Positions 1-64,000 are shown, counted from the first letter of the stretch. The stretch: DNA of 64,000 nt from an uncultured Pseudomonadales bacterium (GCA_943789335.1 CALSTS010000003.1:158774-222773), one strand, 5' to 3'. Notes: generated by a model from the sequence alone, not told the origin. Program-made: numbers and translations.

Positions 1-452
1 TGAGCCACATAGTTATCAGGATTGCCGAATTGATCCAGTACAATTCCTTTACCTTGAGATTGCATATTTAGCGCTAGATCCCTGGCGCCCTCCATGCCTT
101 CTTCCTCAGTCACTTCTATTAAGGTGGCCCCATACGCAGTCATTGAATCTTTGCGCTCCTGGGTCGAGTTAGAAGGCATTATTAAAGTCAATTTATACCC
201 TCTGATGGCGGCAACCATAGCCAAAGCAATACCTGTATTACCGCTAGTTGCTTCAATCAGTGTATCTCCCGGCTTGATATCACAGCGGCCTTCAGCTTTT
301 AAAATCATGCTCAGAGCAGGCCTGTCTTTGACAGAGCCAGCCGGGTTATTACCTTCCAGCTTAACTAGAATTGTATTTGAGGTTTGACCCGGCAACCTTT
401 GTAAGCGCACAAGCGGGGTATTACCTATGGTGCTTTCTATAGTTGGAAACAT
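1..452 (-). CDS. cysM: Cysteine synthase B (O-acetylserine sulfhydrylase), 5' part; C-terminus lies outside the window
   Basis: Absent from the ORF track because it runs off the window edge. My minus-strand translation from ATG 452 (alternative ATG 479) reads MFPTIESTIGNTPLVRLQRLPG..VKLEGNNPAGSVKDRPALSMI..EATSGNTGIALAMVAA..LDQFGNPDN. This is collinear with E. coli CysM, including the SVKDR PLP-lysine motif and the SGNTG loop. Confidence 0.85.
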   Translation of the reverse strand, partial: MFPTIESTIGNTPLVRLQRLPGQTSNTILVKLEGNNPAGSVKDRPALSMILKAEGRCDIKPGDTLIEATSGNTGIALAMVAAIRGYKLTLIMPSNSTQERKDSMTAYGATLIEVTEEEGMEGARDLALNMQSQGKGIVLDQFGNPDNYVA

Positions 453-561
453 TGATGAATCTCTAGTTGGAATCGACATGATTAAGACTATGCTTGAAAC
501 TGCAAATGAGAAAGTAAAATTTTACCTTGAAGCAAGCTTAAGGAAAAAGGTAAAAGTGTGG

Positions 562-1269
562 CTATCCTATGTTTTTTCGAAATAAACTCCTACTTGAGAG
601 TGGTTTATCCCCCAAATGCGCTGAAAGTGCCGCTCGTAACAAACGTTTAGCAGCTTTTTGAGTTTCCAAATCTATAAAATTCTTTTTAGCTATTTGATGC
701 AAAGTAACACTCGAAAAATATTTTTCAAGTTTATTACTTGCTCCATCAACCTGCTCAAAACCACTATCATAATGAAAATGATACCAACAATTATCTACTG
801 GCCTTTCTGTCAGCACACTAAAATCAATTCCGTAACCTAATAAATCAAGTAAATTAAGTTCAAATTTTCTTAAAATCGGCTCTATTTCGGTTTGCTTTGA
901 AAGATCAGATAATGTCACTTCATACAAAGAATAAATTTCAGCATCAGCTTCTTGTTTATGAATCAATCTCACTAGCAGCTCATTTAAATACAAGGCTGCA
1001 AATAGCGTTTTATGCTTAAGAGCAACGCTATTAGATTGTGCTTCAAATTGCCCTAGCGTCTTTAATTCATTTTTCCCTGTTAAATTAACCAGCAGAGGGA
1101 TGAATGGTTGCAATACGGCTCTGTTTTTAGATTTTGGATTTCTTACGCCTTTTGCAACAGCGCTAATTCTGCCAAAATCCTGAGTAATGAAGTCTACTAA
1201 TAGGCTGGTGTCACGATAAGGCCTGCTATGCAATAAATAAGCAGGCTGGGACTGTATAGAATTAACCAT
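562..1269 (-). CDS. recO: DNA repair protein RecO
   Basis: The N-terminus AYLLHSRPYRDTSLLVDFITQDFGRISAVAKG..LQPF.PLL parallels E. coli RecO. Conserved era-recO synteny. Confidence 0.9.
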   Translation of the reverse strand: MVNSIQSQPAYLLHSRPYRDTSLLVDFITQDFGRISAVAKGVRNPKSKNRAVLQPFIPLLVNLTGKNELKTLGQFEAQSNSVALKHKTLFAALYLNELLVRLIHKQEADAEIYSLYEVTLSDLSKQTEIEPILRKFELNLLDLLGYGIDFSVLTERPVDNCWYHFHYDSGFEQVDGASNKLEKYFSSVTLHQIAKKNFIDLETQKAAKRLLRAALSAHLGDKPLSSRSLFRKNIG

Positions 1270-1290
1270 CAGTGTTTATCCTGCTCTTTC

Positions 1291-2205
1291 CTACTGATCA
1301 ATATAGCCTAAACTTCTTAAGGCGCGCTCATCATCGGACCAACCACTCTTAACTTTAACCCATAAGTTAAGCATGACTTTAGCGTTAAAAAGCAGCTCCA
1401 TTTCCTTACGCGCTTCGGTTCCAATTAATTTCAAACTAGAGCCATTCTTACCTATAAGAATTTTTTTCTGCCCCTCTCTTTCAACTAATATCAATGCGCT
1501 GATATGAAGGACTCCGTCTATGGTTTTAAATTCTTCTATCTCAACATTCACTTCATAAGGTAATTCGTCTCCCGTTTGCCGAGTAATTTTCTCTCGAACG
1601 AATTCGGCCGCAAGAAAACGAGAATTTTTATCGGTAAGTTGGTCTTCAGGAAATAAATATGTGCCTGTAGGCAGTGTTTTTATGACAAGGGACTCAAGCT
1701 GATCTATACCTTTACTCTTTAATGCCGAGATAGGAATTATTTCATTAAATTCATGTATTGCCATTAACTTTTCCATGAAAGGCAGCAGGTCCTCTTTATC
1801 ATTAATTTTATCTATTTTATTAATTAATAAGATAGCCGGCGCGCTGCTGTTACGAATATTTTCCAGCACTTTTTCGTCTTCTGGAGTCCATTTATTCGCA
1901 TCAATCATAAATAGAATCAGGTCAACGTCTCTGATGACAGAGCTTACCGTTTTATTCATATAACGATTCAGTGCTTTATCTACGCCTAAATGTAAACCAG
2001 GCGTATCTACAAAAACGATTTGAGCATTATCAGTCGTTTTTATGCCCAATAGTCGGTGTCGGGTAGTTTGAGGCTTACGAGACGTTATGCTGATCTTTTG
2101 GCCTAGAATGTGATTAAGCAGCGTTGATTTGCCAACATTTGGTCTGCCAACTATAGCGACTAGCCCACAGTGGTTTTCAGTTATGTTTTTATTCGATTGA
2201 CTCAC
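1291..2205 (-). CDS. era: GTPase Era
   Basis: G1 motif [17 protein letters not shown] and a C-terminal KH domain. Sits in rnc-era-recO synteny. Confidence 0.95.
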
Positions 2206-2234
2206 TTAATTTAAATTGTCCGTCTAATATTTGC

Positions 2235-2903
2235 TTATATGCCAAGTTTTTCGAGTATTACCGTTGCTGCTTGTTGTTCTGCCTCTCTGCGACTGGTTCC
2301 ATGTCCTTTAAATTCTTTTTTAAACAAATCCACTTTGCAACTAACAGTAAACTGTTGCTCATGATCTTTACCGTCAAGCTCGGATACAACATATTCAGGT
2401 AAAGACAGTTGCTTAGACTGTAAATATTCTTGCAAGCGTGTCTTAGCATCTTTCTGTGGAATTGCTTCATTGGATTCCAATTGTTGGAGCCTTAAGGAAA
2501 ACCAGGAGACTACTTCTTTACGGCAGGCCGCTAAACCAGCGTCAAGGTAGATTGCACTAACCACCGCTTCTAATGCATCAGCCAATATTGAATCTCTATT
2601 AGCGCCACCACTTTGTGATTCTCCGCTACCCAGAATTAAAAGCTCACCAAGTGAAAGCTCACGAGCAATATCCGCCAAGGTGTTTTTTTTTACAAACCCC
2701 GCACGTAAACGGCTTAATTCTCCCTCGCTGGCTTGTGGAAAGCGCTGGTAAAGAACTTCAGCAATAATAAAACCTAGAATGGAATCGCCGAGAAACTCCA
2801 GACGTTCATTGTTAATCTTGCCATGACTACGATGACTTAAAGCGAGCTTTAATAAAGCCTTATCTTTAAAAAGGTGGGATATTTTGCCAGAAGTGCTTGC
2901 CAC
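2235..2903 (-). CDS. rnc: Ribonuclease III
   Basis: RNase III signature ERLEFLGDS plus a C-terminal dsRBD. Synteny supports the call. Confidence 0.95.
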   Translation of the reverse strand: MASTSGKISHLFKDKALLKLALSHRSHGKINNERLEFLGDSILGFIIAEVLYQRFPQASEGELSRLRAGFVKKNTLADIARELSLGELLILGSGESQSGGANRDSILADALEAVVSAIYLDAGLAACRKEVVSWFSLRLQQLESNEAIPQKDAKTRLQEYLQSKQLSLPEYVVSELDGKDHEQQFTVSCKVDLFKKEFKGHGTSRREAEQQAATVILEKLGI

Positions 2904-9840: not shown

Positions 9841-11492
9841 ATGAAAAAAACATATTCTTCATCAGCATACAGCAATCATGATGTGCTTGTCATAGGTGGT
9901 GGAGCAGCAGGTCTTAGCTTAGCACTCAAAATAGCTGAATTTACTAAGGTCACTATCTTATCAAAAAGTTCCCTACATCAAGGCAGCACCTATTATGCAC
10001 AAGGTGGTATTGCCGCAGTATTGGACACTCAGGATAGTGAAATTTCTCATGTTGAAGACACTTTGCTTGCTGGAGCTGGTCTTTGCCATAAAGATATTGT
10101 GGAATATGCCGTAAGTCGTGGGCCAGAATGCATAGAATGGCTAATGCAACAAGGTGTTGCTTTCAGTCAGCGCGATAACCCGAATAAAACCGGTGAAATA
10201 AGCTCTAACAATTTTTCTATATTTTCAGATTTCCATTTAACCCAAGAAGGTGGCCACAGCCACCGCCGGGTTATTCATAGCGCCGATGCAACCGGAAAAG
10301 CCATATTTAAAAGTCTTTCAGAAAAAGTACTCGCTAATGCGAACATAACGGTACTAACTAATACTGTTGCGATTGATTTAATTACTAGCGGAAAATCGGA
10401 CGATAAAAGCGACCAGTGTATTGGTGCTTATATACTTGATGAAAATACTGGGGCTATCAGCACATATAATGCAAGATTTGTTGTGCTGGCTACCGGGGAG
10501 CCAGCAAAGCGTATTTATATACCTCGAACCCGGATGGTGCTAGCGGCGACGGTATTGCGATGGCTTGGCGCGCTGGTTGCCGTGTAGCTAATCTCGAGTT
10601 TAATCAGTTTCATCCTACCTGCCTTTACCACCCTCACGCCAAATCATTTTTGATTACCGAAGCCATACGAGGTGAAGGTGGAATATTGCGCTTACCCGAC
10701 GGCCAACGTTTTATGCCCGCTTATGATGAAAGAGCTGAACTAGCGCCAAGGGATATAGTTGCACGCGCCATTGACTCTGAGATGAAACGATTAGGCTGTG
10801 ATTGTGTATATCTCGACATTACGCATAAATCTCCGGAATTTATTCAAGAGCATTTTCCCAGCATTCAAAAGAAATGCTTAAAATATGGCATCGATATATG
10901 CACTGAAAAGATCCCAGTGGTTCCTGCTGCACATTATAGTTGCGGGGGCATTATTGTAGATAAAAATGGCAAAACTGACGTCACCAACCTATATGCTATA
11001 GGTGAAACCAGCTTCACTGGCTTGCATGGCGCTAATAGAATGGCCAGCAACTCATTACTGGAATGCTTTGTATTTGCATTTTCTGCAGCAGAACATATTG
11101 AACAAATACTGGATAGCACTGAGTTCAATTCTAAGCCGCCTGTTTGGGACGAGAGCCGAGTGACAGATTCAGATGAGGACGTCGTGATTTCTCATAACTG
11201 GGACGAAATTAGACGCCTAATGTGGGATTACGTCGGCATTGTTAGAACCGACAAGCGTTTACAAAGAGCAGCTAATCGTATTGAACTTTTGAGAAATGAA
11301 ATACAAGACTATTATGGCAATTACAAAATCAGTAAAAATTTATTAGAGCTTAGAAATCTATCTTTGGTTGCGGAGCTTATTATTAAATCAGCAATAGATA
11401 GAAAGGAAAGTCGAGGCTTGCACTATACTTTAGATTACCCGGAACAACTTGAAAACAGCTCTGATACGATTTTAAACCCTAAGAATTTTTAA
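9841..11492 (+). pseudogene. nadB: L-aspartate oxidase, split into two ORFs by a -1 frameshift in a G-run
   Basis: ORF 9841-10587 has the FAD motif VLVIGGGAAGLS. ORF 10560-11492 begins [20 protein letters not shown]. Reading the second frame upstream gives [26 protein letters not shown], so the native sequence VLATGGASK needs five Gs where the sequence has four (10495-10498). Confidence 0.85.
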
Positions 11493-11493
11493 C

Positions 11494-11800: not shown

Positions 11801-12721
11801 ATGGATAATTATTATGTAGATTTAAACCATCGTGAACTGCTTGTTGTTAGCGGAATTGATAGTGAGCGTTTTCTCCAGGGGCAATTAAGTTGTGATCTCA
11901 GTGCTATTTCAGAGCTAGACAGCTGCCCCGGATGCTTATGTGACAATAAGGGTCGTGTAATTGCAAGCTTCACCCTCTGGAAAATAACTGAGGTATTCTA
12001 CCTTGAAATGGAAGCTGGTGTTGCTGATTTTGCCGAACAACATCTAAAAAAATACAGTGTGTTTTATAAAACTAAAATTGCTATCAAGAATGAAGTTTTT
12101 AATCGGATCGGCTTGATTGGCTCAGAAGCTCAAGCTTACCTTATAAAACATTTTGCTAAAATCCCATCACAGGCTAATCAAATTGAAGCAAGTGACGGAA
12201 ACTATTTAAGACTCGCTGACCCTGTAAATCTGCGCTTTGAATTATGGCAGGACAGTACATCCCCTCTCTCTGTTCAATCTAAAACTGACCTTGATCTAGC
12301 TGAGGGTAAGCTAGAAGATTGGAGACTGCTAGATCAATCCATTGGCTTGTATAGATTACAATCGGAAGCTTCTGCGCTTTATACGCCTCAAGAATTAAAC
12401 TACGACCAGCTAGGTCATATAAGCTTCACCAAAGGCTGTTATACAGGTCAAGAAATTGTGGCTCGAATGCACTATCGTGGCAAAGCTAAGAAGCGACTTT
12501 ACTTACTAGAAATAAGCGCTGAATCCAGCCCTGAAAAAAATATGCTTATAAGAACCGTTGAAAATAAGCCTGTTGGTGAAATTATCGATGTCGCAGTGTT
12601 AGCAAAAAACAAATATCAAGTACTTGCAATTGCAACTGAATCTATAAAACAGGCTTTGAAAGTACAAAATCTTAACAACTCCGAGTTAACGCTAATTCCT
12701 TCGATACTCTTGAACGAATAG
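11801..12721 (+). CDS. ygfZ: Folate-binding tRNA-modifying protein YgfZ
   Basis: Signature KGCYTGQEIVARMHYRG near the C-terminus. About 300 aa. Confidence 0.85.
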   Translation: MDNYYVDLNHRELLVVSGIDSERFLQGQLSCDLSAISELDSCPGCLCDNKGRVIASFTLWKITEVFYLEMEAGVADFAEQHLKKYSVFYKTKIAIKNEVFNRIGLIGSEAQAYLIKHFAKIPSQANQIEASDGNYLRLADPVNLRFELWQDSTSPLSVQSKTDLDLAEGKLEDWRLLDQSIGLYRLQSEASALYTPQELNYDQLGHISFTKGCYTGQEIVARMHYRGKAKKRLYLLEISAESSPEKNMLIRTVENKPVGEIIDVAVLAKNKYQVLAIATESIKQALKVQNLNNSELTLIPSILLNE

Positions 12722-13159
12722 CAGGTAAACGACCAGTTGGGATAAGGACAGGCTCTTGGGAATATAGTGAAAACACTTTAGAACTTATAAGGCAGGCAGG
12801 GTTATTGTATGACAGCAGCCAAATGGCTGATGACAGTCCTTACGAGTTGCTTTCCAGCGGAGAAAGAACAGGTATAGTGGAACTTTCTGTTGAATAGATA
12901 ATGGATGATTATCCATATTTTGGTATGGATCGCACCAGCACAATACGCCCTCACATTACACCTAGTGACGTCTTAGAAATCTGGTCTGCAGAATTTGATA
13001 TGGCTTATGAGGAAGGAGGCATGTTTTTATTAACGATGCATCCTCAAATTATTGGCCATCGTTCAAGAATCGCAATGCTTGAAGAGTTAATACAGTACAT
13101 TCGATCAAAGCCAGGTGTATGGTTCGCTACACATGAGGAAGTTGCTAGAGCAGCAGCAG
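12721..13159 (+). pseudogene. Polysaccharide deacetylase-family gene fragment: 5'-truncated, in-frame TAG, 3' end fused to an integrase remnant
   Basis: My translation starting right after the ygfZ stop reads AGKRPVGIRTGSWEYSENTLELIRQAGLLYDSSQMADDSPYEL..GIVELSVE*IMDDYPYF..LLTMHPQIIGHRSRIAMLEELIQYIRSKPGVWFATHEEVA. This is the typical C-terminal two-thirds of a divergent polysaccharide deacetylase. The TAG at 12895-12897 sits where a Trp is expected. Confidence 0.7.
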
Positions 13160-13338
13160 AATTGCTATCGGCGGGAATAGATCCTGCAGACGCAGCTAAC
13201 CAGCTTGGGCATAGTGCGGAAATGTTTTTGAGAGTGTATTCAGAATGGATCGATGGTTATGCCAAGAACAAAGACAAATCCCGATTCGATATCGGGAGCT
13301 TAACCGGGCATAGACCGGGCAAAAAAGAGTTAATTTAA
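13160..13338 (+). pseudogene. 3' remnant (about 58 codons) of a tyrosine recombinase / phage-type integrase, next to the tRNA-Asp 3' end
   Basis: SAGIDPADAANQLGHSAEMFLRVYSEWIDG matches the integrase C-terminal box (..aG.dp..ia.qLGHs.....rvYa.wi), including the catalytic Tyr. It is fused in frame to the deacetylase fragment and ends 28 nt from tRNA-Asp. The junction coordinate is approximate. Confidence 0.7.
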
Positions 13339-13366
13339 CTAAGTTATTGATTTTAAAAGATCTTGT

Positions 13367-13443
13367 TGGCGGACCGGACGGGACTCGAACCCGCGACCTC
13401 CGGCGTGACAGGCCGGCATTCTAACCAGCTGAACTACCGGTCC
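13367..13443 (-). tRNA. tRNA-Asp (anticodon GUC)
   Basis: The reverse complement GGACCGGTAGTTCAGCTGGTTAGAATGCCGGCCTGTCACGCCGGAGGTCGCGGGTTCGAGTCCCGTCCGGTCCGCCA folds as a cloverleaf. It is near-identical in its arms to E. coli tRNA-Asp and has an encoded CCA. Confidence 0.95.
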
Positions 13444-13470
13444 GCGACACAAAAGAAACAACTGACACCT

Positions 13471-13546
13471 TGGTGGGTGATGAGGGATTTGAACCCCCGA
13501 CATTCGCCTTGTAAGGGCGACGCTCTCCCAACTGAGCTAATCACCC
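13471..13546 (-). tRNA. tRNA-Val (anticodon UAC)
   Basis: The reverse complement GGGTGATTAGCTCAGTTGGGAGAGCGTCGCCCTTACAAGGCGAATGTCGGGGGTTCAAATCCCTCATCACCCACCA closely resembles E. coli tRNA-Val(UAC). CCA is encoded. Confidence 0.95.
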
Positions 13547-13594
13547 AAAGCGTCAAGGCTGCGCATTTTACCGACTTGAAGCAGCATGTCAATT

Positions 13595-15968
13595 CTATTT
13601 AGCAGTATGGCGGAAGGTGCCATCCCAGTCTGCTGGTAACTCCTGATTTCTTAGGTTCTCAATACGTTCCAGATACACTGTATACAGCAGTTTATTTGCC
13701 TCTTGTTCTTCTAAAGCTTTAAAACATGCTTGTGCTTTAACCCGCTCTTGTTTCACATAATGCTCATGAGCATTATGGTATTCTTCAACCAATTTAAGCT
13801 GTTCCGGGGTCGCCTCTTGCTCTTGGCAAAGTGGCTCATAAATCCTGACTGGTTGCTCTTTTCCTTTAACCTGAACCTTGTCTATTAGCCGACAAAGAAT
13901 ACCGTCAATATGATCATAGGTTTCTTCGCCTATTAGGAACTTTACACCATAAAACTTTGTAATACTCTCCATGCGTGATCCCAGATTTACAGCATCACCA
14001 AGTACGGTATAGGAACGCCGATAAGTTGAACCCATATCTCCAACATTCATGAGGCCAGAATTTATGCCAATACCAACATTTACTTCTGGCAAACCTCTTT
14101 CAATAAACTCTTTTGTGAGTTCTTCGGTTTTTTCTAGCATTTTAAGACCAGCTAAAACTGCATGTTTACGATGCTCAGTATCCGTTAAGGGGGAGCCCCA
14201 AAATGCCATCACCATATCGCCAACATATTTGTCAATGGTGCCATTATTTTCAAAGATAATGCCGGTAATTGGGGTAAAGAAATCATTTAAGAATATTTTT
14301 AATTCATGAGCTGACAAGACTTCAGAAATTGAAGTAAAACCTCGAATATCTGAAAAATAATACACTTAATTCCTTACTCTCCCCGTCAAAATTATAGTTA
14401 TCCGGATCATCCAGCATGGCATCAATATGCGCAGGAGGTACATATTGATCGAACATCATTTTGATCACCCTGCGATTCATGCTTTCCATTAAAAAACCAT
14501 ATGTCATATTGATTACTATAATGAGTAAAATCAAAAACAGTAAAATAACCAATGAAATATCGAGCTTGTAATCAATCCAAAGTTTGAAATTTAGGGCAAC
14601 CAGACCCAGCATAAATGTCAAACTGGAAAGGCCCAGCAAGCCAGGCCCCAAGCGTGGATAAATTAACGATAAGAATAAACCAATAATAAAAATAGCAACC
14701 GTTACAGCCCCATTAACCCAATCTGGTCTACTTGGAAATGGATTGTCCTGAGTAAAAGTAAATTCAGAAAATATGTTCCCTATAGTAGAGCCCTCATTTG
14801 AGTTAAGCTGATCAATAGTCACACTAGGCGATGCATTTAATAAGGCATTAAGCACATTAGCGTGCACTTCTACACCCGGATAAACCGCTTCCATGGGAGT
14901 AGCTCGAAGATCAAACAAGCCTGTAGCTGTAGTGCCGATCAATACTAAACTGTTTTCAAGCTGCTCTCTTTCAATATCACTTAAGGTATCTTGTAATACA
15001 TCAGTTGCAGAAATATATGGAAAAGTACCGCTCTGCCCTAGCTCTGAGCGCCCTATATATGGAATTAATACCCTACCGTCAGCCGTTGTGGGGATTGTAA
15101 TTTGCCCCATATTAATGCCGGTAAGTCTTCTGAAGTTACCAAAATTATCGGCTTCAGTTTTGATAGTAAAATTATCTTCAAAGTAATATAAACCCGCCAT
15201 CTCTAGAGCTAACGAGGGATAAATCTGATTTTGGAAATTTAATACCAAGGGGGTAGATCGAATTATTCCATCAATATCAGGAATGGTGTCAAAAAAACCT
15301 CCCCCAAATGCGGCATCTTGCAACATAGCGATATTAGCTTCATAACCTTGCATGGTAATCAAGGTTGCGAAACCAACGTTGCCGTCATCAATTTCTGTTA
15401 TCTGGCCTGGTAAAGTGCCGTATCTGAGCGCCTCCGAGGGCCGAAAAGACATACCCAAAGCCACATCAGTAGATTGTAATTTTTCAGCAAAATAAGCATC
15501 TGCATCCAGAGCTTGTTGCACTCTTACTAGGTCATTAATTAAGAGTTGGCTTTCACTTCTCAGCCTTTCTTCCAATTCAAGCGCCAAGTTTCTTGAAGGC
15601 TCTGGGAAAGTGACATCAAAACCGATTACCAAGGCACCAGCATCAGCCAGATTTTCGACCATATCGCCTATTTTAAAACGCGACCAGGGCCACTGCCCTT
15701 CCGCATCGAGACTTTTTTAATCATAATCAACAATAACAATTTTATGTTCTCCATCGCCCCCTGATGGCATAAAAAGATTAAAACGCTGGTCATAAACAAT
15801 ATTGTCGAGACGGTCTATGAAAATAGAGACTGAAGCAGGTGCATCAATATGAATCCACAAGGTTAGCAGCATCGCCAGCAAACCCAGAGTAAGGGGCAAA
15901 CGCGCACCTCTTAGCAGCTGCAGCTTGGCTCTGCTTAATAGACGAAGTATTAACTTGCTAAATGGCAT
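13595..15968 (-). pseudogene. CHASE2-sensor adenylate/guanylate cyclase, broken by one in-frame TAA and one +1 frameshift
   Basis: Three collinear ORFs. The first is the N-terminal TM piece, ..IVIVDYD then TAA (15717-15719) then KSLDAEGQWPWSR in the same frame. The second is the CHASE2 body plus TM helices (14322-15662). The third is the class III cyclase domain FSDIRGFTSISE (13595-14365). The second break is an extra base in a T5 run (A5 on the plus strand, 14353-14357): ELSVLF|SDIRGF. Confidence 0.85.
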
Positions 15969-16714: not shown

Positions 16715-18390
16715 ATGTCTGAAGAATTATTCCAGCAATACCTCATCATCCTAACTTTTTCGCTGATAGGCGCCGTTATTTTTCGACGACTGGGTATGGC
16801 AACTATTGTTGCTTATATGGCAAGTGGTGTTTTGGTTGGGCCTCATATACTGGGTTTTATAGATAATCCACAACAATTTACTTTGTTGGCTGAATTCGGC
16901 GTTGTATTCCTCTTATTCAACCTCGGTCTAGAATTTAACCTAAAAAAAAAATGATGGCTATGCGTTTTGCCGTTTTTGGTGTGGGAGGCTTTCAAGTTAC
17001 AGCCTGCACTCTGGTGTTTGCAACGGCGGTATATCTATGGGAATCAAACTTTTCTACTGCAATCATGATTGCAGGAACATTAGCTCTTTCGTCTACCGCT
17101 ATTGTTACGCGTGAACTACTCGCCAATCGTCAGTTGCATAACTTGCACGGTCAACTTTAAGTGGGCGTATTGTTATTTCAAGATATAGTAGCCGTCGTGT
17201 TTTTAGTCCTGGTGCCTGTACTTGGTGGCACTCAAGATGTTTCTCTGGCGAGCAGTCTGATGAGCGCTGCATTCAGTGCTGTAATATTGCTAGTGATTCT
17301 TTTGGTCACAGGAAAATGGATTCTGCCTATTATTTATACTGAAGTAGCCAAGAGTAAATCGAATGAAATATTCGTCTTAAGCACCTTAGTGATTGTCTTA
17401 CTCGCAGCTTGGTTAACTCATAGTTTTCATCTTTCGATGGCATTAGGTGCATTTGTTACCGGAATGATGTTGGGTGAAGGCCCCTTTAAATATCAAGTGG
17501 AAATTGATATTAGGCCTTTCAAGGACATCTTGCTTGGTCTATTTTTTGTCACTATTGGGATGGGGCTGGATGTCTCTTTATTGTTGATTTATTGGCCGCG
17601 GATATTATTTTTTACTCTTTGCTTAATCGGCATAAAATTCATATTAGTGGCCTCCGTTGTCCGTCTATTGAGATATAGCAGCCATGACGCATTAAGTGTT
17701 GGGCTGAACTTGGCTCAGGCTGGTGAATTTGGTCTTGCGCTAATGGCATTAGCCAAGATTAATGGCATTGTTACAACAGAACAGGCGTCCTTCATTATTT
17801 TAATCATCACTTTTAGCATGGTTGCCAGCCCTTTTTTAATTAGACATGCCAATTGGATAAGCAAAAAAATATTACAGGGAAAACCCTCTGAATCAAAAAA
17901 AGTTCCAATTCAGCTCCACCTAGAAAACCATGTCATTATCGGCGGATTTGGCAGGCTTGGGTCCACTTTATCAACTTTCTTAGAAAACAATGATTTCTCC
18001 TATATTGCCATCGAAACTAATATTGATTTAGTTGATAAATACCGAAATCAAGGCAAAAATATTATTTATGGGGACAGCAACAATGTCGAAATTCTAAATC
18101 ACTGCCATCTAGATTCAGCGCGCTTGGTAGTCCTCACGTTCAAATCTCTGGAGGAAGGTAAGGCTGCCATAGGGGGTATTCGACAACGCAATACCAATGT
18201 ACCAATTATTGTGCGTTGTCAGGATCATCACGGTTTAGATGAATTGTTATTACTTGGTGCTGATCATGTATATCCTGAATTACTGGAATCCAGTTTATTA
18301 ATCAGTCGACATGTGCTCGGATTGTTATCGATTAATGAACAAGAAATTACAAAACAAATTGATGAGTACAGGGTATCTCCTCCTCAATAA
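16715..18390 (+). pseudogene. CPA2 (KefB/KefC-like) K+/H+ antiporter with RCK/TrkA-N domain, broken by an A10 frameshift and an in-frame TAA
   Basis: ORF1 ends LEFNLKKK* inside a run of 10 A (16942-16951), and ORF2 continues MMAMRFAVFGVGG. ORF2 ends HGQL-TAA (17158-17160) and is followed in the same frame by GVLLFQDIVAV, the Kef ...LGILLFQD motif. The C-terminus carries VIIGGFGRLG (Rossmann/RCK). Confidence 0.85.
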
Positions 18391-21038: not shown

Positions 21039-23271
21039 TTGCGCGCATTCAATATCCTCATCTCACTTTGTTTGTTGATTGTCCCATTTTTTTCAATGGC
21101 ACAAACTGAAACGCCTAGTGATTCAGGCATGCAGACATCAGACGTAAAAATCGCAGATGTCAGAAAAACCAATCTTGCACCTGTATTAGATGGCGTTCTG
21201 GACGACCCTATTTGGCAAGAAGCCAGGATGATTACAGATTTCCATCAGGTACAACCTGTTGATCATGGTGAACCCTCAGAGCCAAGTGTGTATTACATTG
21301 CCTATGACAATAATAATTTTTATATGGCTGCTAGGCTTTATGACAGCGACCCTTCGCAGATAAGAGCCAGGCAGTTAATTCAAGGTCAGAATGTCTTTGG
21401 AGACGACACGGCAGATATTTTGTTAGACACCTTCAACAACGACAGAACCGCATTTTATTTCCAGACTAATCCAAATGGCGTCCGTAGTGAAGGTGTCTGG
21501 GAAAGCGCTAGTAAATACAATAATGATTGGAGTGGTATCTGGGAAGTAGAGTCAAGAATTGATGAGCAGGGCTGGACCACAGAAATGATCATCCCTTTTA
21601 CCACCTTAAACTTTGATCCAAACACAGATGAATGGGGACTCAATCTAGGCCGCTCCATTGCTCGATATAACGAGAGAATTTATTGGTCATCCTTTAATCG
21701 CAGCACCAATCCTGCAACTGCAGGGCAGGTAGTCGGCATCAATGAAATTCAGCAGGGTTTAGGGCTGGATATAGTCCCTTCCTTAACCATTGCTCAAGCA
21801 GAAGATCATGCTGCTAACAGCACGAATGACCGAACAGATCCTTCATTAGATGTTTTTTATAAATTCACTCCCAATCTGACTGGCGTATTGACCTTAAATA
21901 CTGATTTTTCAGCCACTGAAGTGGACGACAGACAGGTAAATTTAACTCGATTCTCTTTGTTTTTCCCTGAAAAAAGAGACTTTTTCCTACAGGACTCCGA
22001 AATATTTAGTTTTGGTAATATTGGAGGATCTGGCGGGGGTAATGGCCCACCTGGTGCCAAGATTAATAACGGTATTCCTTTTTATTCAAGGCGTATCGGG
22101 CTGAATCCCGCTACCGGAGAGCCAGTTGATATAGATGTTGGCGGCAAATTGGCCGGTCGTGTTGGCAACCTCAGTTTAGGAGCTTTAGCTATACAGCAAG
22201 GTGATCGCGTCGGCCTGGATGGTCAGGATGTATTCGTCGGTCGTATTACATCTAATATACTTTCCGAATCAAAAATCGGAGCCATTTTTACCGATGGCAA
22301 TCCCAATAGTGTCACTGAGAACTCCCTGATGGGTGTCGATTTCACCTATCGCAACACTCAATTTTCCAATACTCATACACTCACCAGCGACCTGTGGTAT
22401 CAACAGTCTGATACAGAGAATATGGACGGTGATGATAAGGCTTATAACGCCAATATCAATTACTCAACACAAGGCACAGGCGCCAGTCTTGAACTTGATT
22501 ACAACTATGTCGGCGATGAATACAACCCGAGCCTTGGTTTCGCTAACAGAAGAGGGATAGAAAGAGCGGCATTTTCATCCAATTATCGTTATTTTCTGGA
22601 TTCGCACCCTTTTATTCGTAATCTGACATGGGTTCTTAGGGGAGATTACATAAGAGATTCTGAGACGGGAGAGATGCAAAGTCAGTTTGTGCAGTTTAAC
22701 CCAATTGCCTTTGATACTAATCGGGGAGATCTAGCTTTCCCTCATGGTGCAAAATGATAAAGAAGGTTTAACGCAACCTTTTGAAATTCAACCAGGGGTT
22801 ATCATCCCCGCTGGAGAATATTCCTTTAATTATGCTCAGATCATGATGAGATCTAGTAGAAATCGCACCCTTTCGCCCAACCTAACTTACCGTGAAGGTG
22901 CATTCTACGATGGTAAAAGTCAGGTCATCAATGCTGGTTTTGGTTGGAACCCCAATCGAAATCTATCTGTAGACCTTTCTTATAACTATACAGATGCATC
23001 CTTACCGGCAGGAGATTTTGTCACTCGTCTAATCCGACTAAATGCCAGGTACGCTTTTAATGTTGAATGGTCTTGGGTGAACTTATTGCAGTATGACAAC
23101 CGATCAGGCTCGTTAGGGCTTAACAGTCGCCTACGCTGGAACCCGCGCGCTGGAGAAAACCTTTATCTGGTGATCAACTACAACTTTGATTCCAGCATCG
23201 GAGCATTCAGGGAACTCAATCCGACAGATTCGGAAATAGTCGTTAAATATTCTCGGAATTTTAGGTTCTAA
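21039..23271 (+). pseudogene. CBM9-like / DUF5916 secreted or outer-membrane protein, split by a frameshift near 22735-22757
   Basis: ORF 21039-22757 has a signal peptide and PVLDGVLDDPIWQEA, typical of carbohydrate-binding family 9. ORF 22744-23271 is a beta-rich C-terminus ending in F. The two overlap in different frames next to an A4 run. TTG start. Confidence 0.7.
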
Positions 23272-28223: not shown

Positions 28224-28229
28224 GCAAGT

Positions 28230-29168
28230 CTAAAAGCTAAGCTTTACACCCTGCTCTATTAAATCTGAGGGAAACAGAATGATTGTTTCCCCTGCTTCCA
28301 ACAATCCCGTTACTTCAGCAAATTCCTGATTACGATTACCAATGGCCACCTGTTTTAAGATGGCCTTACCGTCTTCAGCCACGAAGGTATACCAGGCATT
28401 ATTGCGCTGGAAAATTGCACTGGTAGGAATTAATAAAACATCATCTTCTTGCCAAATAATGACACTGGCTTCAATTCGGTATTCAGCCCCAAGTATGGCA
28501 GGTGTATCGATAAAATTAGCGATAACATTAACCCGTTGTTCTTCAACACCTAAGGCGGAAAATTTTGTGAAGGCTTCTGGTTCGATATAACTAATTAAAG
28601 CCTCAAGTACATTATCCCCTCCCCAACCGGTAATCAGCATGCGGTCGCCCGTTTTTACTTTTACTGCATCCTGAGTCAACAAATCGACAACTATTTCCAG
28701 TTCATCTTCGTTACTGATCTCCAATAAGGGTGTTCCTGCAGCAAGCACCCTCTCATTTTCTTCAAACAATCGGTAAATAGTCCCATCCGCTTCTGGTGCC
28801 ATCGCGTCTGGAGCAATATCAGTAACCAGCGCTACGTTTTCGTTAGCTGTAAGACTAGGAATTAAATTGTAAAACTGAAAAACAAAGCCGACATGCATAC
28901 GGCGAAAATTTGTTAATTGCCGTTCAGAAACCTGTGAAAGATTTTCTTCTTTATAAAATAACTCGCCACTACTTGCTATATCTAATCCGCCCATAATATT
29001 GAGCAAGGTAGATTTACCACTACCCGAAGCCCCGAGGATAACTGCCAATTCACCTGCGTATAAATCTAATGAGACATTGTTAAGTGCATTAACAATCAAC
29101 TCTCCCATTTGATAAACCTTGCTAAGGCCTCTTACTTTTAGAATTGCCTGTTCATCAGTCGCATTCAT
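28230..29168 (-). pseudogene. Chimeric ORF: N-terminal ~115 aa of a MacB/LolD-type ABC ATPase fused in frame to the C-terminal ~190 aa of an HlyD/MFP periplasmic adaptor
   Basis: The N-terminus has Walker [13 protein letters not shown] and the Q-loop region ([20 protein letters not shown]), but no ABC signature or Walker B. From about aa 120 ([41 protein letters not shown]) it reads as the beta-barrel and membrane-proximal part of an efflux adaptor. The junction is around 28795-28825. Confidence 0.7.
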
Positions 29169-32106: not shown

Positions 32107-32391
32107 TTATAAGTCTGGAATAGATAGCTCTCCGCTTATAATTTTTTCTTTTTCAGTTCGTGTTAAGTTCTTAATTCTGTATTCCAGCCTTGAAGCTTCG
32201 GAGCGATCACCGACTTTAGTAAAAAATTCGAGACTAAGCGGTCCCTTCCCTCGCAAAAATTTGGCGGCAAGCCTGCCTCCGTCTTGATGTTCTTGAAAAC
32301 GGCGTTTAACATCTGTGCTTATTCCGGTATAAATTTTTCGGTGAGCTGTTTTTATTAAATACAAGCTCCAAACTGGTTTTTTGTTAGTCAA
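32107..32391 (-). CDS. yhbQ: GIY-YIG domain protein, UPF0213/YhbQ family
   Basis: [36 protein letters not shown] parallels E. coli YhbQ. Confidence 0.8.
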
Positions 32392-49836: not shown

Positions 49837-49945
49837 TTTGGTGAAAGTTGTGTTTCGGTTTACAGCAAACTATTTAAAATGCTATAAAGACATTCATTAT
49901 ATACATCTACTAAAATGGCTTAAAAGCTAAGGTATACAAACAATA

Positions 49946-53793: not shown

Positions 53794-54419
53794 TTAAAGT
53801 GCAAAACAATAAAACAAACCATCTCCACCGGAACTGACTAAAGCCGGCCCGCTGCAACCTCGACTATCATGCGCAGAATTGTAATTAGCGAAATCATGAT
53901 GCCCAACTCTTGCTTTACCTTCATCACTGCTGGTCCAGTTGCTGCAGGTCATATCCTCACCCGCTGGGTAAGCCGTGCCATCCACCTGAGAACCTGTCAG
54001 GATGTCGTGCCGGTTAGGGGAAGACCCAGTGCCAGGGACCTTATTGCCAGTAGCAGTTAAGCCAGTGATCAGCCATTTATTCGATGATTGGCGCTGTGAA
54101 GATCATCCACACTTGCCGCAACACGGTAACCATTAGCATTGAACCAGGGACCTTCACCAATTCTATCCCGTGCATTAACCGCATTTCGACCCTGCGTGCT
54201 TAAGTAGGCATGGAAAGTTTTATCAAGACCTGCCGCATCCGCCTGACTTTGGCAAATAGCATCCGCGCCAGCCAAACCACCTAAATCTGCGCCATTGCCA
54301 GAACCTGTAGCTGTAATAAAAAAACTTGGTTCACCAGATGGCGGTTGAGCCAAGGTTGTTGCTGAGCTAACAACTCCTGTGAGAGCAAGTACTGCAAGAA
54401 TTAACGATTTCTTATTCAT
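53794..54419 (-). pseudogene. Secreted endostatin-like (DUF1554-type) protein, frameshifted near 54069-54080
   Basis: ORF 54069-54419 has a signal peptide and GADAICQSQADAAGLDKTFHAYLST. It ends HRING*, and the next frame continues open with ..KWLITGLTATGNKVPG..RHDILTGSQVDGTAY, merging into ORF 53794-53985 (..MTCSNWTSSDEG..GLFYCFAL). Confidence 0.7.
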
Positions 54420-54588
54420 AGTGACTCCTTTTTATTATTTTTATATTTACTAGTGAATTTGAACCGGCACAATTCTTACTACGCACCAGCTTTACTGTAA
54501 ATACCCAATAGGCAAAGCCTAAACTACTTCATTTCTATCCTGCAGTTCAATTCATTTAGAAAATTAGAATGCAGAAGCTAGAATGATC

Positions 54589-55588
54589 TTAACTGTTATT
54601 AGTAACTTTTCGATAAGTGCGAGTAACCACCCGCTTCCACCAGAGAATAAATCCCGTAATAAACATGGCTGCGGGAATTAAGCTAATAAAATAAAGCCCA
54701 TTTAGTCCATGCTGCCTCAAAGCGCCCAAAATGAATATCGACCATAAAGTCTAAAAAACCTGAGCTTCTGTCAGCTCTAATTTCTCCTAGATTCATTATA
54801 AAAGCATTCGGCTTCAACTCGCCTGAATCCAACATGGCTTGAATCTCTGAGTCAGGCATTCCGATTAAACCCATGTTGAGAATATTACTTAAACCCAAGG
54901 TATCAGTGACAGTTCGAAAGGTATCTGGAATGGCTATCAGCATTCCACTGATCCCCCAGGCAAACATAAAAAATAAACACCAAAACCCAAATACACTATG
55001 CAATTGCCAAAGCGTGCCTCGCGGACTTTTATTGCTGAGATACAGACCCTGGCGCCATTGCGCTTTGCCGCGCCACCAGATAAACAAACCACTCAGCATC
55101 ATGACCAAAAATACAACCGCTCCCCAGCCATTAATTTGTCGCCCACCATTCTCAATAAACAGATCATCATGGAAATCGATAAGCCAGCGATAAGCTTTAG
55201 CCTGCCAGGGCAATGAACTTCCCTCGGTCTAGCCCTCGATATTGATCAAAGTAACGATTCTCTGTTACCATCTTGTCTAAGCACAACAAGAACTGCACGC
55301 TCAGGATTAGATGATGCCGTAAACATAAACACTTCAGAATCACTGTAAACTTCTTCTATTCGTGCTTCCAGTTCATCATCAGGTAATGGCCAGCTGCAGT
55401 CGGTTGCACATTGCCCGGGACAAAGTAACGATCAAGATCATTCTTCAAGCAGATAAACTGCACCACTAACACTAATCATCAGAATATAAAGACCAAGCGC
55501 AATGCCTGCCCAAAGATGAATTTGGAATAAAGTTTTATTAAGTAAATGGGTCTTGGGAGCCGAGACCCATCTTTGCCATGTATTCAAG
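54589..55588 (-). pseudogene. PepSY-associated TM protein (PiuB-like), heavily degraded with about five frame changes
   Basis: Hand translation gives (TTG)NTWQRWVSAPKTHLLNKTLFQIHLWAGIALGLYILMISVSGAVYLL / KNDLDRYFVPGNVQPTAAG / LPDDELEARIEEVYSDSEVFMFTASSNPERAVLVVLRQDGNRE / NRYFDQYRGLDRGKFIALAG / PWQAKAYRWLIDFHDDLF...(ORF 54683-55213) / GLYFISLIPAAMFITGFILWWKR. These are consecutive pieces in different frames. Confidence 0.75.
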
Positions 55589-55603
55589 TGAGCTTATTCA
55601 ATA

Positions 55604-56085
55604 TCACATAAAGTCTGGTTCTTTCTCAAAAATAGTCAGGTTATCTGAATCCATCCAACCATTTTCCTGCCAGACTGCAGCTCTTTCTTCTGAATTACAA
55701 ACGCCATCATTAGGCCGAGCAATGGAGCCATCTTCTTTTTGTACAAAACACATGGCGCCTGCTGGCTCTCCTGAATTAAGTGGCAACATAATACTTTCAC
55801 CATTTCTCCTGGTGTAAAAGTTGTTCCATTTACCCCTTGGCGCATAGCATGCACCTGAGCGGCACCTTCGAAACCCCAGGTTTGAGTATTGCCTTGCTCA
55901 TCTTCAACTTCTATATAGAGCCAGGTATGTGGATTATTGAATGCCCAACGCTGTACACGACCAATAACGATTTGTTCTTTTGACGCATCAAACATTGCAA
56001 AGGAGTGATGTGCTGTAACGGTTTGAGTCATCGCTAAAAAGCTAACTACTAAAACAGTTCCAATGGTTAATATTAATTTTTTCAT
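55604..56085 (-). pseudogene. DUF6152-like secreted protein, frameshifted near 55795
   Basis: Signal peptide then AHHSFAMFD..NPHTWLYIEV..TWGFEG, a DUF6152-like N-terminus. The frame changes after TPGEMVKV and continues as ..SIMLPLNSGEPAGAMCFVQKEDGS (ORF 55604-55789). Confidence 0.65.
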
Positions 56086-56122
56086 TTCAGTGTCCTCGAA
56101 AATTGTTTTTAAAAGCTATTGT

Positions 56123-57141
56123 CTACTGGCCCATTGGGTTAAGGGACTGCCCGGGAATATCTGGGAAATCAGTAAAACCTCGCGGATCTTTATATTCCGG
56201 ATCACCTGGCAAATAGAAAAAAGTTCTGCCGGTTTCATCCTGATAGGAGTTACTACTAGTTGTACATTCCCAGTTACGAATACGGGCGCCAAACTCAGCT
56301 AATTCAGGGCTTGATGTATGCACGTAGACAGCAGACTGAGGGGATTGCAAACCAACGGATCATAAAACGTCACCTGGGTGATTAACTGGCGCACTCCTTC
56401 TGCATTTAGTTGTACTTGCCAGCTCTCAACCATCTCCAATTGATTGCTGGTGAGAGGCATACCACGCAGATAATCTGCAGGGTTGATCCATTTTGTCCAG
56501 ATGATTAATTTGTCATTATCCCAGAATCCAATGCTATCTCCAGTTGCCGAATGTTTGCCATCAATATTGACATGCTCAGCATTGATATACACACGACGAG
56601 TTTCATTCATTAAATCATTCAGCATCCATGTTTGAGTTGGAGTATTAGCAAACTCTTTTACATATGGCTCCCATAGCCATCGAGCAGTACCCGGGTACTG
56701 ACATGTGGTCAAGCGATCATAAAGTTGTTCACCATATTCTTCGATCTCTGCCCGGCGCGCTCTGAATTGCGCTTCATAAGCAGGTGTTAAAACGCCTTCC
56801 TTAACAGCGCCTCCAGGGGACATGGCAACGGCCATTGAACCTCCGTCCAAAAATAAAGAAGGCATGCTGTTATAGCCTGCACTCCAAAGACCATCCCACA
56901 CCGGAATCGTTGCCATAGTATGCTGGGTTCCGCCATCAGCTTCGTCAAGTAAAAAATTATAATGCTCTTCAGCTGTTGCGAAATTTCGGGGTGGAGATTC
57001 AACTTCAGGATCGCCTATTCTTCTATCCGTAAGGGTTTCCATTTGAGCAAAACTCAGTGCTTGAATACCTAATGCTAAAAATACCAGCATGTTGGCTTTT
57101 AAAACGAACTGTTTTGTTATCATTATCCTTATACCTGCCAT
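56123..57141 (-). pseudogene. Secreted protein of unknown function, frameshifted near 56350
   Basis: ORF 56299-57141 has a signal peptide, with a likely start MITKQ at 57123. It ends ..TFYDPLV then out-of-frame residues. ORF 56123-56350 continues as QSPQSAVYVHTSSPELAEF... in another frame. Confidence 0.6.
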
Positions 57142-57295: not shown

Positions 57296-57907
57296 GTGTA
57301 CTCTCGTCGTGGAAAAGGTCTTAATTTAACTATGGAATTTGACGACAGTCGCTCTCAGGTTCTCCGCTTGAATCTTGCTGGTAATCCAATTGAATGGCTT
57401 ACCTGGCAGGAAGCTACTACCCTCTACGCTCGCGAACTCGTCACCTGGACTCTTGGTGATACTATCAAAACTGTCTGGGGCGGAACCTCTCGTTTAAGCG
57501 GTGAACGCAGCTATATTGATCTGCAAAGCATCATAGCCTGCGCAGGAGACGTGCATCATAATTATTCAAAAAAATCAGCTCTGACCAATAAAATTTTATT
57601 TCGTCGAGATCAAAACTTATGCATGTATTGTGGTAAGGAGCATCTTGATAAAGACTTAAGTTGTGACCACATTATGCCTACCTCGCGCGGCGGCCTTAAT
57701 ATCTGGACCAATGTTGTAGCCGCTTGTCGGCGCTGCAACCATTTCAAACAGAACCGAACACCTGAAGAAGCCCATATGGAATTATTAATGCTGCCTTTTG
57801 AGCCCAACGCCGCAGAATATTTAGCCCTAATGAATAGCTCAAGGATTCGAGCCGACCAGATGGAATTTCTTAAAGCCCAATTTTCTAAAAACTGTCGTTT
57901 GCAATAA
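57296..57907 (+). CDS. HNH endonuclease
   Basis: C..C....LSCDH..P.S.GG....N.V.AC..CN..K (CMYCGKEH..LSCDHIMPTSRGG..NVVAACRRCNHFK). GTG start at 57296, or ATG at 57332. Confidence 0.8.
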   Translation: MYSRRGKGLNLTMEFDDSRSQVLRLNLAGNPIEWLTWQEATTLYARELVTWTLGDTIKTVWGGTSRLSGERSYIDLQSIIACAGDVHHNYSKKSALTNKILFRRDQNLCMYCGKEHLDKDLSCDHIMPTSRGGLNIWTNVVAACRRCNHFKQNRTPEEAHMELLMLPFEPNAAEYLALMNSSRIRADQMEFLKAQFSKNCRLQ

Positions 57908-60627: not shown

Positions 60628-60717
60628 AATATTACTTAATCTCTCTTTTCCTATTATTAATGTAGACTGCTATCTAGACTTAATCAGTAAACGTCACGAA
60701 CCCTGGTTAACCAAGGC

Positions 60718-60779
60718 ATGCGAACATTTTAAAAACGGAGTTTACTAGACTGTAAATGAGTATTTTAAAATGTTCGCAT
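60718..60779. repeat. Perfect 17-bp inverted repeat (ATGCGAACATTTTAAAA / TTTTAAAATGTTCGCAT) with a 28-nt spacer, between the VWA gene and the ECF sigma gene
   Basis: Read directly. Arms are at 60718-60734 and 60763-60779. Confidence 0.95.
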
Positions 60780-60807
60780 AACGAAGAGAAACCAAGTGCA
60801 GTAGTTT

Positions 60808-62532: not shown

Positions 62533-62632
62533 ATCACGCTCCTGTTTAGGCTCTTAAGCTCTGAATAAAATTGGTTTTCAGGCTTATAAACGTGAATATG
62601 AGGAAAAAGGGTTAATTCAAATGAAAAATATT

Positions 62633-63028
62633 TTATTCCAACAAATGAGTTAGCTCATTAGGTATAAATGGTTTGCCCTCGGTATTGACGGCCGTGCCGG
62701 TGATTTCGGCACTTAATAGGGTTCTCTCGTCGCCCTGTCGATGTATTTCCTGAATAAAAAGAAACTTTAAACGAGACTTCCTGGCAAAGCGGGTACGAAC
62801 GATAAATGAATCTCCACTTGTTAGTGAACCCTTATAATCCAGTTCAGCTCTAATAACGACCAGATTGATTCCATTCTTAGCTAAAGCAGCAAAATCTACC
62901 TTGTGACTCTTTAAATATTCATGTCGAGCGTGTTCAAGATAATTCTGATACACCGCATTATTCACAACACCTTGCAGATCACACTCGTAATCCCGAACTG
63001 ATAATTCTAATTCGCTGTATTCGCTCAC
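62633..63028 (-). CDS. 4HBT/YbgC-family acyl-CoA thioesterase
   Basis: VRDYECDLQGVVNNAVYQNYLEHAR hot-dog thioesterase N-terminal motif. 131 aa. Confidence 0.85.
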   Translation of the reverse strand: MSEYSELELSVRDYECDLQGVVNNAVYQNYLEHARHEYLKSHKVDFAALAKNGINLVVIRAELDYKGSLTSGDSFIVRTRFARKSRLKFLFIQEIHRQGDERTLLSAEITGTAVNTEGKPFIPNELTHLLE

Positions 63029-63112
63029 ATTAATTCTCCCAAAGAAAGATAAACGAGATTACTTGATTCCCTTTAACTTACACAAGTGCCATAAAATGGA
63101 ACTTGTAAAAAC

Positions 63113-63153
63113 TTATCCACAAGAGAAACCCTGTTGAGACTGCTTGTGGATAA
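63113..63153. promoter_or_regulatory. Two perfect consensus DnaA boxes in inverted orientation (TTATCCACA ... TGTGGATAA)
   Basis: Read directly. TTATCCACA is at 63113-63121 and TGTGGATAA at 63145-63153. They are part of an 11/12 inverted repeat, cttatccacaag / cttgtggataaa. Confidence 0.8.
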
Positions 63154-63477
63154 ATCTGTGTGGAACTTGCTGAATTTACTTTTGTCAATATGGCAACACT
63201 ACATTTTCAAAAAAAACATGAATTTAAAATATTTTAATTTACCTTATATATCAATCGGTTATGCTTATGAAAAGTTTAAAATAACTAGTTATTTAAACTT
63301 CTTAATCATTATTATTACAAAATTTCGCTATGTGCATAAAATCATTAGAGTTATTGTATTTATAATTACATTGTATATACAAACATCAAGCTTAGAGGCC
63401 CGGTTAATTTAAATGTTAAAGCGATAAATTTTGGTCACACTTCAAGGCCTCAAGAGTGAGTTGTAGCTCTTTTAAAC

Positions 63478-64000
63478 TTATTCAAATCGGTAGCCATAGG
63501 TTTGAATAATCTTTTTAGCTTTGTCGCTTTGCACAAAATCTAGAAAGTCTATGGCAGCCTGTTTATTTTCACCTCGTTTTAAAAGAAGCGCATCTTGTCT
63601 GATGGGGCTATGTAATTCTGAAGGAACCAGCCAAACCGAGCCTTCTATTAACGCTTCTAGCGCTTCATCTAGCGCTTCTTCCACCACTCCTGCTTGCATA
63701 ATTTGTGACAGAGCTACAAATCCAAGTTCAGCGTTTCCAGAATCAACAAACTGAAATGCTTGAGTGATATTCTCACCTTGCACCAAAAATTCTCTGGTGC
63801 TTTCTTGCAAACCAAGAGACGCCAACACTTCCAATGCGGCTACACCATAAGGTGCCAGTCTAGGATTAGCTATCGACAATTTATTAAAACTACCTTGTCG
63901 TAATAACTCACCCTCTGCTAATGGCAAACCAGGTGATTTAGACCATAAGGCCAGGGCGCCAATAGCATAGGTAAACCTGCTACTGTCCGATTCTCCACCT
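63478..64000 (-). CDS. modA: Molybdate ABC transporter substrate-binding protein, C-terminal part; N-terminus lies outside the window
   Basis: The frame stays open upstream of the track ORF to the window edge (..SRFTYAIGALALWSKSPG..). IANPRLAPYGVAA..AL..LG and GFVALSQ are ModA-like motifs. Confidence 0.8.
   Translation of the reverse strand, partial: GGESDSSRFTYAIGALALWSKSPGLPLAEGELLRQGSFNKLSIANPRLAPYGVAALEVLASLGLQESTREFLVQGENITQAFQFVDSGNAELGFVALSQIMQAGVVEEALDEALEALIEGSVWLVPSELHSPIRQDALLLKRGENKQAAIDFLDFVQSDKAKKIIQTYGYRFE

Follow-up and report, generated by a model that had tools for sequence, protein, structure and literature searches.

How many of the genes that look broken in a single metagenome contig are broken in the organism itself? 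The question is raised by a stretch of 64,000 nucleotides from an uncultured Pseudomonadales bacterium (GCA_943789335.1, CALSTS010000003.1:158774-222773; the whole of this stretch is hereafter called the window). An earlier note, made from the sequence alone, listed 11 disrupted loci in it: nadB, a polysaccharide deacetylase fragment, an integrase remnant, a CHASE2 cyclase, a KefB-type antiporter, an ABC::HlyD chimera, a CBM9/DUF5916 protein, and genes for an endostatin-like protein, a PepSY_TM protein, a DUF6152 protein and its neighbour. These were taken as a signature of reductive evolution, as in a host-restricted symbiont, or as partly a sequencing artefact. Every one of the lesions was recovered in the window, where it had been placed or close by. 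When the same positions were compared among other assemblies of the same population and in sister species, the lesions fell into two classes, one shared across the population, with the cyclase and KefB genes intact in sister species, and one private to the window, in a comparison in which private insertions and deletions (indels) followed the type of assembly. We conclude with good confidence that five of the loci are real pseudogenes and that the other six are broken only in this assembly, most likely by consensus errors.

Assemblies of one planktonic population

Comparisons were made with more than 30 same-population stretches drawn from about 20 public metagenome assemblies and projected onto the window. 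Sources of the same genotype comprised ENA assemblies with Flye-style "contig_N" names (ERZ1064xxxx), SPAdes and MEGAHIT assemblies, KRUG19 scaffolds, JGI contigs of up to 575 kb, and Logan per-run contigs. Apart from a few strain-variant blocks, these stretches are near-identical to the window, and exact-protein look-ups repeatedly retrieved its genotype from seawater metagenomes of several studies. Contigs from different studies are 99.8-100% identical across tens of kb. These data indicate a planktonic population of unusually low diversity that recurs widely.

The window is gene-dense and carries about 67 protein-coding loci together with tRNA-Asp and tRNA-Val genes. With 11 disrupted loci among 67, roughly one in six, the earlier figure of about one broken gene in seven is a fair count of what stands in this contig; as a measure of the organism it is inflated about two-fold, the real fraction being four events over five loci of about 67 (about 6-7%). 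A pseudogene fraction of this size lies at the upper end of what is ordinary for free-living bacteria, a range taken here as general background rather than as a computed value.

Pseudogenes shared across the population

The five loci assigned to the first class, with the two adjoining tRNA genes, are as follows.

12694..13149, plus strand: polysaccharide deacetylase, C-terminal half only, interrupted by an in-frame TAG at 12895-12897; real and fixed
13150..13338, plus strand: tail of a tyrosine integrase (last ~50 residues), fused in frame to the deacetylase fragment; real and fixed
13367-13443: tRNA-Asp, adjoining the integrase tail
13471-13546: tRNA-Val
13595..15968, minus strand: pseudogene of a CHASE2-sensor adenylate/guanylate cyclase, with TAA at 15717-15719 and a frameshift at 14353-14357; real and fixed
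16715..18390, plus strand: pseudogene of a KefB-type K+/H+ antiporter, with an A10 run at 16942-16951 and TAA at 17158-17160; real and fixed
28230..29168, minus strand: in-frame ABC::HlyD deletion chimera of 312 amino acids (aa); real and fixed

The cyclase gene is divided into pieces of 83, 446 and 256 aa by two lesions, a CAA codon changed to TAA at 15717-15719 and a +1 shift (one extra base) in the A5/T5 run at 14353-14357. Comparison with orthologues, one of the checks that the earlier note had proposed, returned the cyclase and the antiporter each as a single intact open reading frame (ORF) in sister species, at 80-90% amino-acid identity; the cyclase ORF spans 786-805 codons in five of them (L025, L027, L028, L029 and L030). 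Among the same-population stretches, the TAA was identical in all 12 that cover it, and the A5 shift was present in 10 of 12, all Illumina ones included, the two exceptions being divergent, indel-rich Flye contigs. Position 13774, within the cyclase pseudogene, is tri-allelic (T/C/G) among the assemblies, consistent with neutral polymorphism in a dead gene. As a separate observation, two Flye stretches (L015 and L020; ERZ10645735 and ERZ10646520) are 5-10% divergent across window positions 13000-14500, over the portion of the cyclase pseudogene nearest the tRNAs, carry many indels there and contain no recognisable cyclase ORF; they may represent a strain in which the cyclase pseudogene has been further decayed or replaced.

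The antiporter is likewise hit twice. Its pieces of 79, 69 and 409 aa are collinear with positions 2-65, 73-138 and 141-373 of the Pfam family Na_H_Exchanger, and the orthologue in L025 is intact at 557 aa. The TAA at 17158-17160, derived from TCA, was found in 12 of 12 stretches. The upstream A-run was A10 in seven stretches and A9 in five (one Illumina MEGAHIT contig among the latter); the frame requires A8 or A11, and both observed lengths are therefore out of frame. The length polymorphism may reflect neutral slippage in a dead gene or simply the difficulty of sequencing the run. For the 409-aa fragment, the collection has entries in 35 blocks. Two ways in which a functional product might still be made were considered and rejected: transcriptional slippage on the poly-A run would not rescue KefB because of the downstream TAA, and stop-codon reassignment does not account for the lesions, since TAA and TAG are both involved, relatives have sense codons at both TAA sites and the genes are frameshifted as well. 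In a Pseudohongiellaceae metagenome-assembled genome (MAG; Co_bin_380, L026:6300-8050) the KefB orthologue is also disrupted: the frame shifts at the same poly-A site and once more elsewhere, and there is an in-frame stop. Either KefB has been lost in parallel within the clade or that MAG contains errors.

The ratio of nonsynonymous to synonymous substitution rates (dN/dS), another check put forward in the earlier note, was calculated for the fragments against L025. Values were 0.06-0.12 for the cyclase fragments and 0.03-0.06 for the KefB fragments (0.03-0.12 overall), like that of the intact PTPS gene lying between the two (0.03), and the rise towards 1 that relaxed selection would give was not seen in the cyclase or KefB fragments. 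Since the fragments still carry low values, inactivation appears to be recent, with purifying selection in force for nearly all of the divergence between the species. Low dN/dS is no argument against pseudogene status here because each gene carries two disabling lesions, and both are accordingly kept as pseudogenes.

Upstream of the cyclase, the frame 12694-13338 joins two gene remnants. Its residues 3-152 align to residues 130-278 of PDB entry 3rxz, a structure of 300 aa (E = 8e-22), and ~130 N-terminal residues of the deacetylase are absent. The integrase tail aligns with the C-terminal end of a complete 403-aa Phage_integrase ORF in the relative L029; that ORF occupies the equivalent position, shortly downstream of the cyclase gene, with a tRNA-like sequence beside it. 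Pfam gave no match on the deacetylase and integrase fragments, which were identified instead by a PDB-sequence search and by comparison with relatives. Both the TAG in the deacetylase and the deacetylase/integrase junction were identical in 10 of 10 stretches, Illumina ones included, and synteny with the sister species breaks around this tRNA integration site. From its sequence and setting, the composite ORF is best described as a putative decayed integrative-element scar at tRNA-Asp. It resembles known decayed integrative elements at tRNA genes in that the C-terminal tail of an integrase abuts tRNA-Asp/Val and an intact integrase occupies the corresponding position in L029, and differs from them in that only ~50 integrase residues are left, these are fused in frame to a truncated deacetylase, and no att repeats were detected. 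The earlier count treated the deacetylase fragment and the integrase remnant as two disrupted loci; both are present, yet they are not independent events, the single composite ORF being one deletion scar. The neighbouring interval 11801-12721 was considered as a further part of the integrase remnant and rejected; it is an intact 306-aa YgfZ-like GCV_T protein beside SdhE. Position 12837 in the deacetylase fragment is T or C among the assemblies, again consistent with neutral polymorphism in a dead gene.

The fourth event is the in-frame chimera. Residues 1 to ~116 are those of a MacB/LolD-type ABC ATPase that has the Walker A motif and lacks the signature and Walker B motifs, and the remainder is the C-terminal half of an HlyD-family adaptor. 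Pfam places ABC_tran (1-93 of 137) before HlyD_3, the gene tables add YknX_C, and PDB ATPases cover the chimera only at query residues ~8-120. The identical 312-aa product was called in Flye, Logan and Illumina (KRUG19) assemblies.

Because the source is an error-prone long-read metagenome assembly, all the lesions might be artefacts and no gene truly broken. We regard this as scarcely credible: the stop codons, the gene fusion and the frameshift in the cyclase recur unchanged in each Illumina-type assembly that spans them, and in almost every Flye contig, over different studies and years, and the KefB run is out of frame at both lengths and its large fragment widely indexed. The earlier note had argued that nonsense codons and a gene fusion are not typical homopolymer sequencing errors, and exactly these lesions proved to be real and fixed across assemblies. 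Among its homopolymer indels, those in the A5/T5 run of the cyclase and the A10 run of KefB also belong to the organism, and the one in the G4 run of nadB is private to the window.

The first class thus comprises four events over five loci, fixed in the population: the tRNA-Asp scar, the cyclase, KefB and ABC::HlyD. The stretches that agree on these lesions include SPAdes, MEGAHIT, KRUG19 and JGI Illumina-type contigs from independent studies. The four events arose by ordinary point mutation, replication slippage and deletion, and recently, because the fragments keep the low dN/dS of functional genes. Intact sister orthologues, fixation in the population, two hits per gene and low dN/dS are also what is seen in ordinary recent pseudogenes of free-living bacteria. 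The point of difference is local density, which is above a genome average here: three of the five, namely the island scar, the cyclase and KefB, fall inside 6 kb of the tRNA integration site.

Breaks private to the window assembly

The remaining six loci, and the divergent block in which four of them lie, are as follows.

9841..11492, plus strand: nadB (L-aspartate oxidase), frameshift at G4, 10495-10498; private to the window
21039..23271, plus strand: CBM9/DUF5916 outer-membrane-type protein, extra C giving C3 at 22739-22741; private to the window
54032..56423: divergent allele block with 73 single-nucleotide polymorphisms (SNPs) and ~21 indel columns; private to the window
53794..54419, minus strand: endostatin/DUF1554-like secreted protein (207 aa elsewhere), 2-bp insertion at 54068-54069
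54586..55578, minus strand: PepSY_TM protein (330 aa elsewhere), five 1-2-bp indels
55604..56085, minus strand: DUF6152 protein (160 aa elsewhere), 1-bp deletion at ~55794
56122..57141, minus strand: neighbour of unknown family (333/339 aa elsewhere), 1-bp deletion at ~56358

In the window nadB is split into two pieces (9841-10587 and 10560-11492). The site reads G5 in 9 of 9 other stretches, which gives an intact nadB of 550 aa. The CBM9/DUF5916 site reads C2 in 12 of 12 other stretches, most of them with an intact ORF of 724 aa, and two other Flye contigs break the same gene with their own, different frameshifts. Private products of the window (248 aa from nadB, 149 aa from the DUF6152 gene, 280 aa from its neighbour and 116 aa from the endostatin-like gene) had no exact match on record, and the window's own assembly is evidently not indexed. 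The nadB and CBM9/DUF5916 lesions are very probably artefacts. A non-coding difference of the same type as the private coding lesions, and equally private, lies between the HIBADH-like and CotH genes (49877-49895), where CT is absent relative to nearly all other assemblies and the length of a C-run differs.

The stretches differ by assembly type in a way that bears directly on these lesions. No private indel was found in 11 of the 12 non-Flye stretches (short-read-type or Logan), even in those with 11-15 private SNPs, and the sole exception was one 10-bp deletion. The 12 Flye "contig_" stretches carry 0-49 private indels per 10 kb, many of them isolated single-base changes with no SNP nearby. 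In those contigs they interrupt era, purK, the genes for a Mur ligase and a LysR regulator and others, with rpoE and rseA broken in one divergent contig; the window and the Illumina contigs carry every one of these genes whole. The nadB and CBM9/DUF5916 changes of the window are of the same kind as the private indels of its sister Flye contigs.

The window is therefore readily compared with known long-read consensus errors and strain mosaics of the PacBio HiFi/metaFlye type. It resembles them in having single-base indels that occur in a single assembly and in no short-read assembly of the population, in that each sister Flye contig has a different set of indels with essential genes among those hit, and in that the likely source project used Sequel II HiFi reads and Flye --meta (PMC10108472). 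That source is likely the North Sea 2020 spring-bloom project, in which the 0.2-3 um bacterioplankton fraction was sequenced (PMC10182627, PMC10108472); its HiFi reads came from a PacBio Sequel II, and Flye 2.8.3 --meta was the assembler (PMC10108472); indels can frameshift proteins predicted from the long reads of those data, unassembled ones especially (PMC10182627). The window departs from such errors in that its block mixes mostly synonymous strain SNPs with non-homopolymer indels, which needs low depth or allele conflict rather than plain homopolymer miscalls.

The block (54032-56423, 2.4 kb) calls for separate treatment of its SNPs and its indels. One other allele is common to 15 of 15 stretches across the block (~11 different contigs), and none of them has the block indels; on the common allele, Illumina-type, Logan and most Flye copies keep the ORFs of 207, 330, 160 and 333/339 aa unbroken. 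An exact 33-mer of the window's block allele had no match in the JGI metagenome collection, and a protein scan of JGI metagenomes returned only distant relatives (63-85% identity) and no same-species alleles; these relatives were used as outgroups. The differences number 47 synonymous and 34 nonsynonymous, with an overall dN/dS of ~0.2 (0.06-0.24 in the three larger genes), and no substitution creates a stop codon. At the SNPs, the block is nearer the outgroups than the common allele is, and its coding indels are common to no outgroup. A comparable block without the indels is found elsewhere: against window positions 27500-28344, the sister contig L016 has ~100 SNPs and almost no indels over an intact DUF1499 gene, which is evidence that divergent alleles are imported by recombination in this near-clonal population. 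The SNPs of the window's block thus belong to a real strain allele that looks functional and probably represents a recombination block.

The indels that shift the four adjacent minus-strand genes are each of 1-2 bp and fall between 54068 and 56358. With flanks ~100% identical to the other stretches, the time available to the block allele is negligible, and about a dozen frame-breaking indels would have been hard to accumulate on it. Polishing by Flye at low depth or under allele conflict is a simpler explanation, and in our judgement a likely one. The second class would then comprise six loci (nadB, CBM9/DUF5916 and the four block genes) broken by consensus errors of a low-coverage, strain-mixed PacBio-HiFi/metaFlye assembly, the errors in the block being superimposed on a real divergent strain allele. 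The suggestion in the earlier note that the decay was partly a sequencing artefact is well borne out by nadB, CBM9/DUF5916 and the 54-56.4 kb block, all of them private to the window.

Several points weigh against assigning the second class to error. The change in CBM9/DUF5916, C2 to C3, lies in a short homopolymer only. Several of the block indels lie outside homopolymers, which is atypical of a high-quality HiFi consensus. The recombination block of L016 is free of such indels, so that the SNPs of the window's block are real biology and a decayed strain allele is possible. We infer that the private indels are errors rather than rare real variants from the comparison of assemblies and not from reads, and the North Sea 2020 project is named as the source from contig naming and near-identity.

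These points lead to the strongest competing explanation, that all eleven lesions are real and mark a distinct strain which has lost nadB, CBM9/DUF5916 and the PepSY_TM/DUF6152 iron-related cluster by active decay without insertion sequence (IS) elements. Its best support comes from the block, where the SNPs are real variation, mostly synonymous and nearer the outgroups, many of the indels do not alter a homopolymer, and the breaks strike together four neighbouring genes that seem to form one operon, as expected of a dead operon. It is nevertheless unlikely. None of the private lesions occurs in the 9-15 other stretches that cover each site, and the resulting products are not on record; the near-perfect identity of the flanks leaves a tiny time for a dozen indel events; a dN/dS of ~0.2 with no stops made by substitution fits poorly with the neutral time that so many indels would take; and the same sort of private single-base indel breaks essential genes in the sister Flye contigs and is almost lacking in Illumina contigs.

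Lifestyle and the meaning of the gene losses

With real pseudogenes and assembly errors thus separated, the proposal that the window records reductive evolution in a recently host-restricted symbiont can be weighed on the former. Scanning a genome collection with the CHASE2 fragment retrieved sister species at 75-89% amino-acid identity, labelled Pseudohongiellaceae (two), "SAR86 cluster" (one), "uncultured Enterobacteriaceae" (two) and, for the rest, Gammaproteobacteria; the window's own genome was not among the matches. Together these make up the OM182-related group, known as planktonic heterotrophs of North Sea spring blooms (PMC8371827). The organism itself is a marine gammaproteobacterium of free-living habit with Pseudohongiellaceae/OM182 as its relatives, and its population recurs in metagenomes from the North Sea and other seawater.

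The symbiont proposal has in its favour that the real pseudogenes affect sensing (the CHASE2 cyclase), ion homeostasis (KefB) and export (ABC/HlyD), and that the population is near-clonal across samples; inactivated sensory and transport genes and clonality are indeed shared with host-restricted symbionts of the Sodalis or Serratia symbiotica type. We consider it very improbable. The genotype was assembled from seawater metagenomes of several studies, the likely source being a 0.2-3 um bacterioplankton fraction (PMC10182627, PMC10108472), and its relatives are planktonic MAGs of Pseudohongiellaceae/OM182 type (PMC8371827). Coding density is ~90%, with gaps of at least 100 bp totalling only ~5.5 kb of the 64 kb, and GC content is uniform along the window at ~40%. 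Only four real events were found among the ~67 loci of this window, and three of the five loci affected cluster at the tRNA island site. Unlike host-restricted symbionts, the organism has no IS expansion, normal coding density, a free-living plankton habitat and a low real pseudogene fraction (PMC8371827).

The absence of IS elements from the window, which the earlier note had reported, was upheld. No transposase domain was found in any called gene, none was found in six-frame translations of the intergenic pieces upstream of ~53.75 kb (the scan did not cover the pieces at 53.7-63.2 kb), and the window holds no repeats of at least 30 bp. Apart from the integrase remnant, only two genes of the window are nuclease or mobile-element-like: one for a stand-alone HNH endonuclease of 203 aa (57296-57907), itself variably disrupted among sister Flye contigs, and one for a small GIY-YIG protein of 85 aa (32107-32364). 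Elsewhere, an overlapping pair encoding a DUF1611 (P-loop) protein and an alanine-racemase-N-like protein (18601-20837) is kept in all assemblies.

Should the private lesions be real after all, which we think improbable, the window would represent a rare strain in which the iron-related PepSY_TM/DUF6152 operon, nadB and the gene for the outer-membrane CBM9 protein are decaying in addition to the two-hit pseudogenes that the whole population carries. Such a strain would show the genome of an open-water plankton bacterium in the course of being streamlined by mutation, with no part played by IS elements. On the reading preferred here, of real pseudogenes beside consensus errors, both components are of kinds already known, ordinary recent pseudogenes on the one hand and long-read consensus or strain-mosaic errors on the other. 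The value of the case is then mainly methodological: consensus errors and strain mosaics can raise the number of genes that seem broken in one long-read metagenome contig about two-fold, and other public assemblies of the same population allow real pseudogenes to be separated from artefacts without reads. What belongs to the organism is four recent inactivations in a widespread planktonic bacterium, in which genes were lost by point mutation, slippage and deletion and not through IS elements, and this is ordinary biology.

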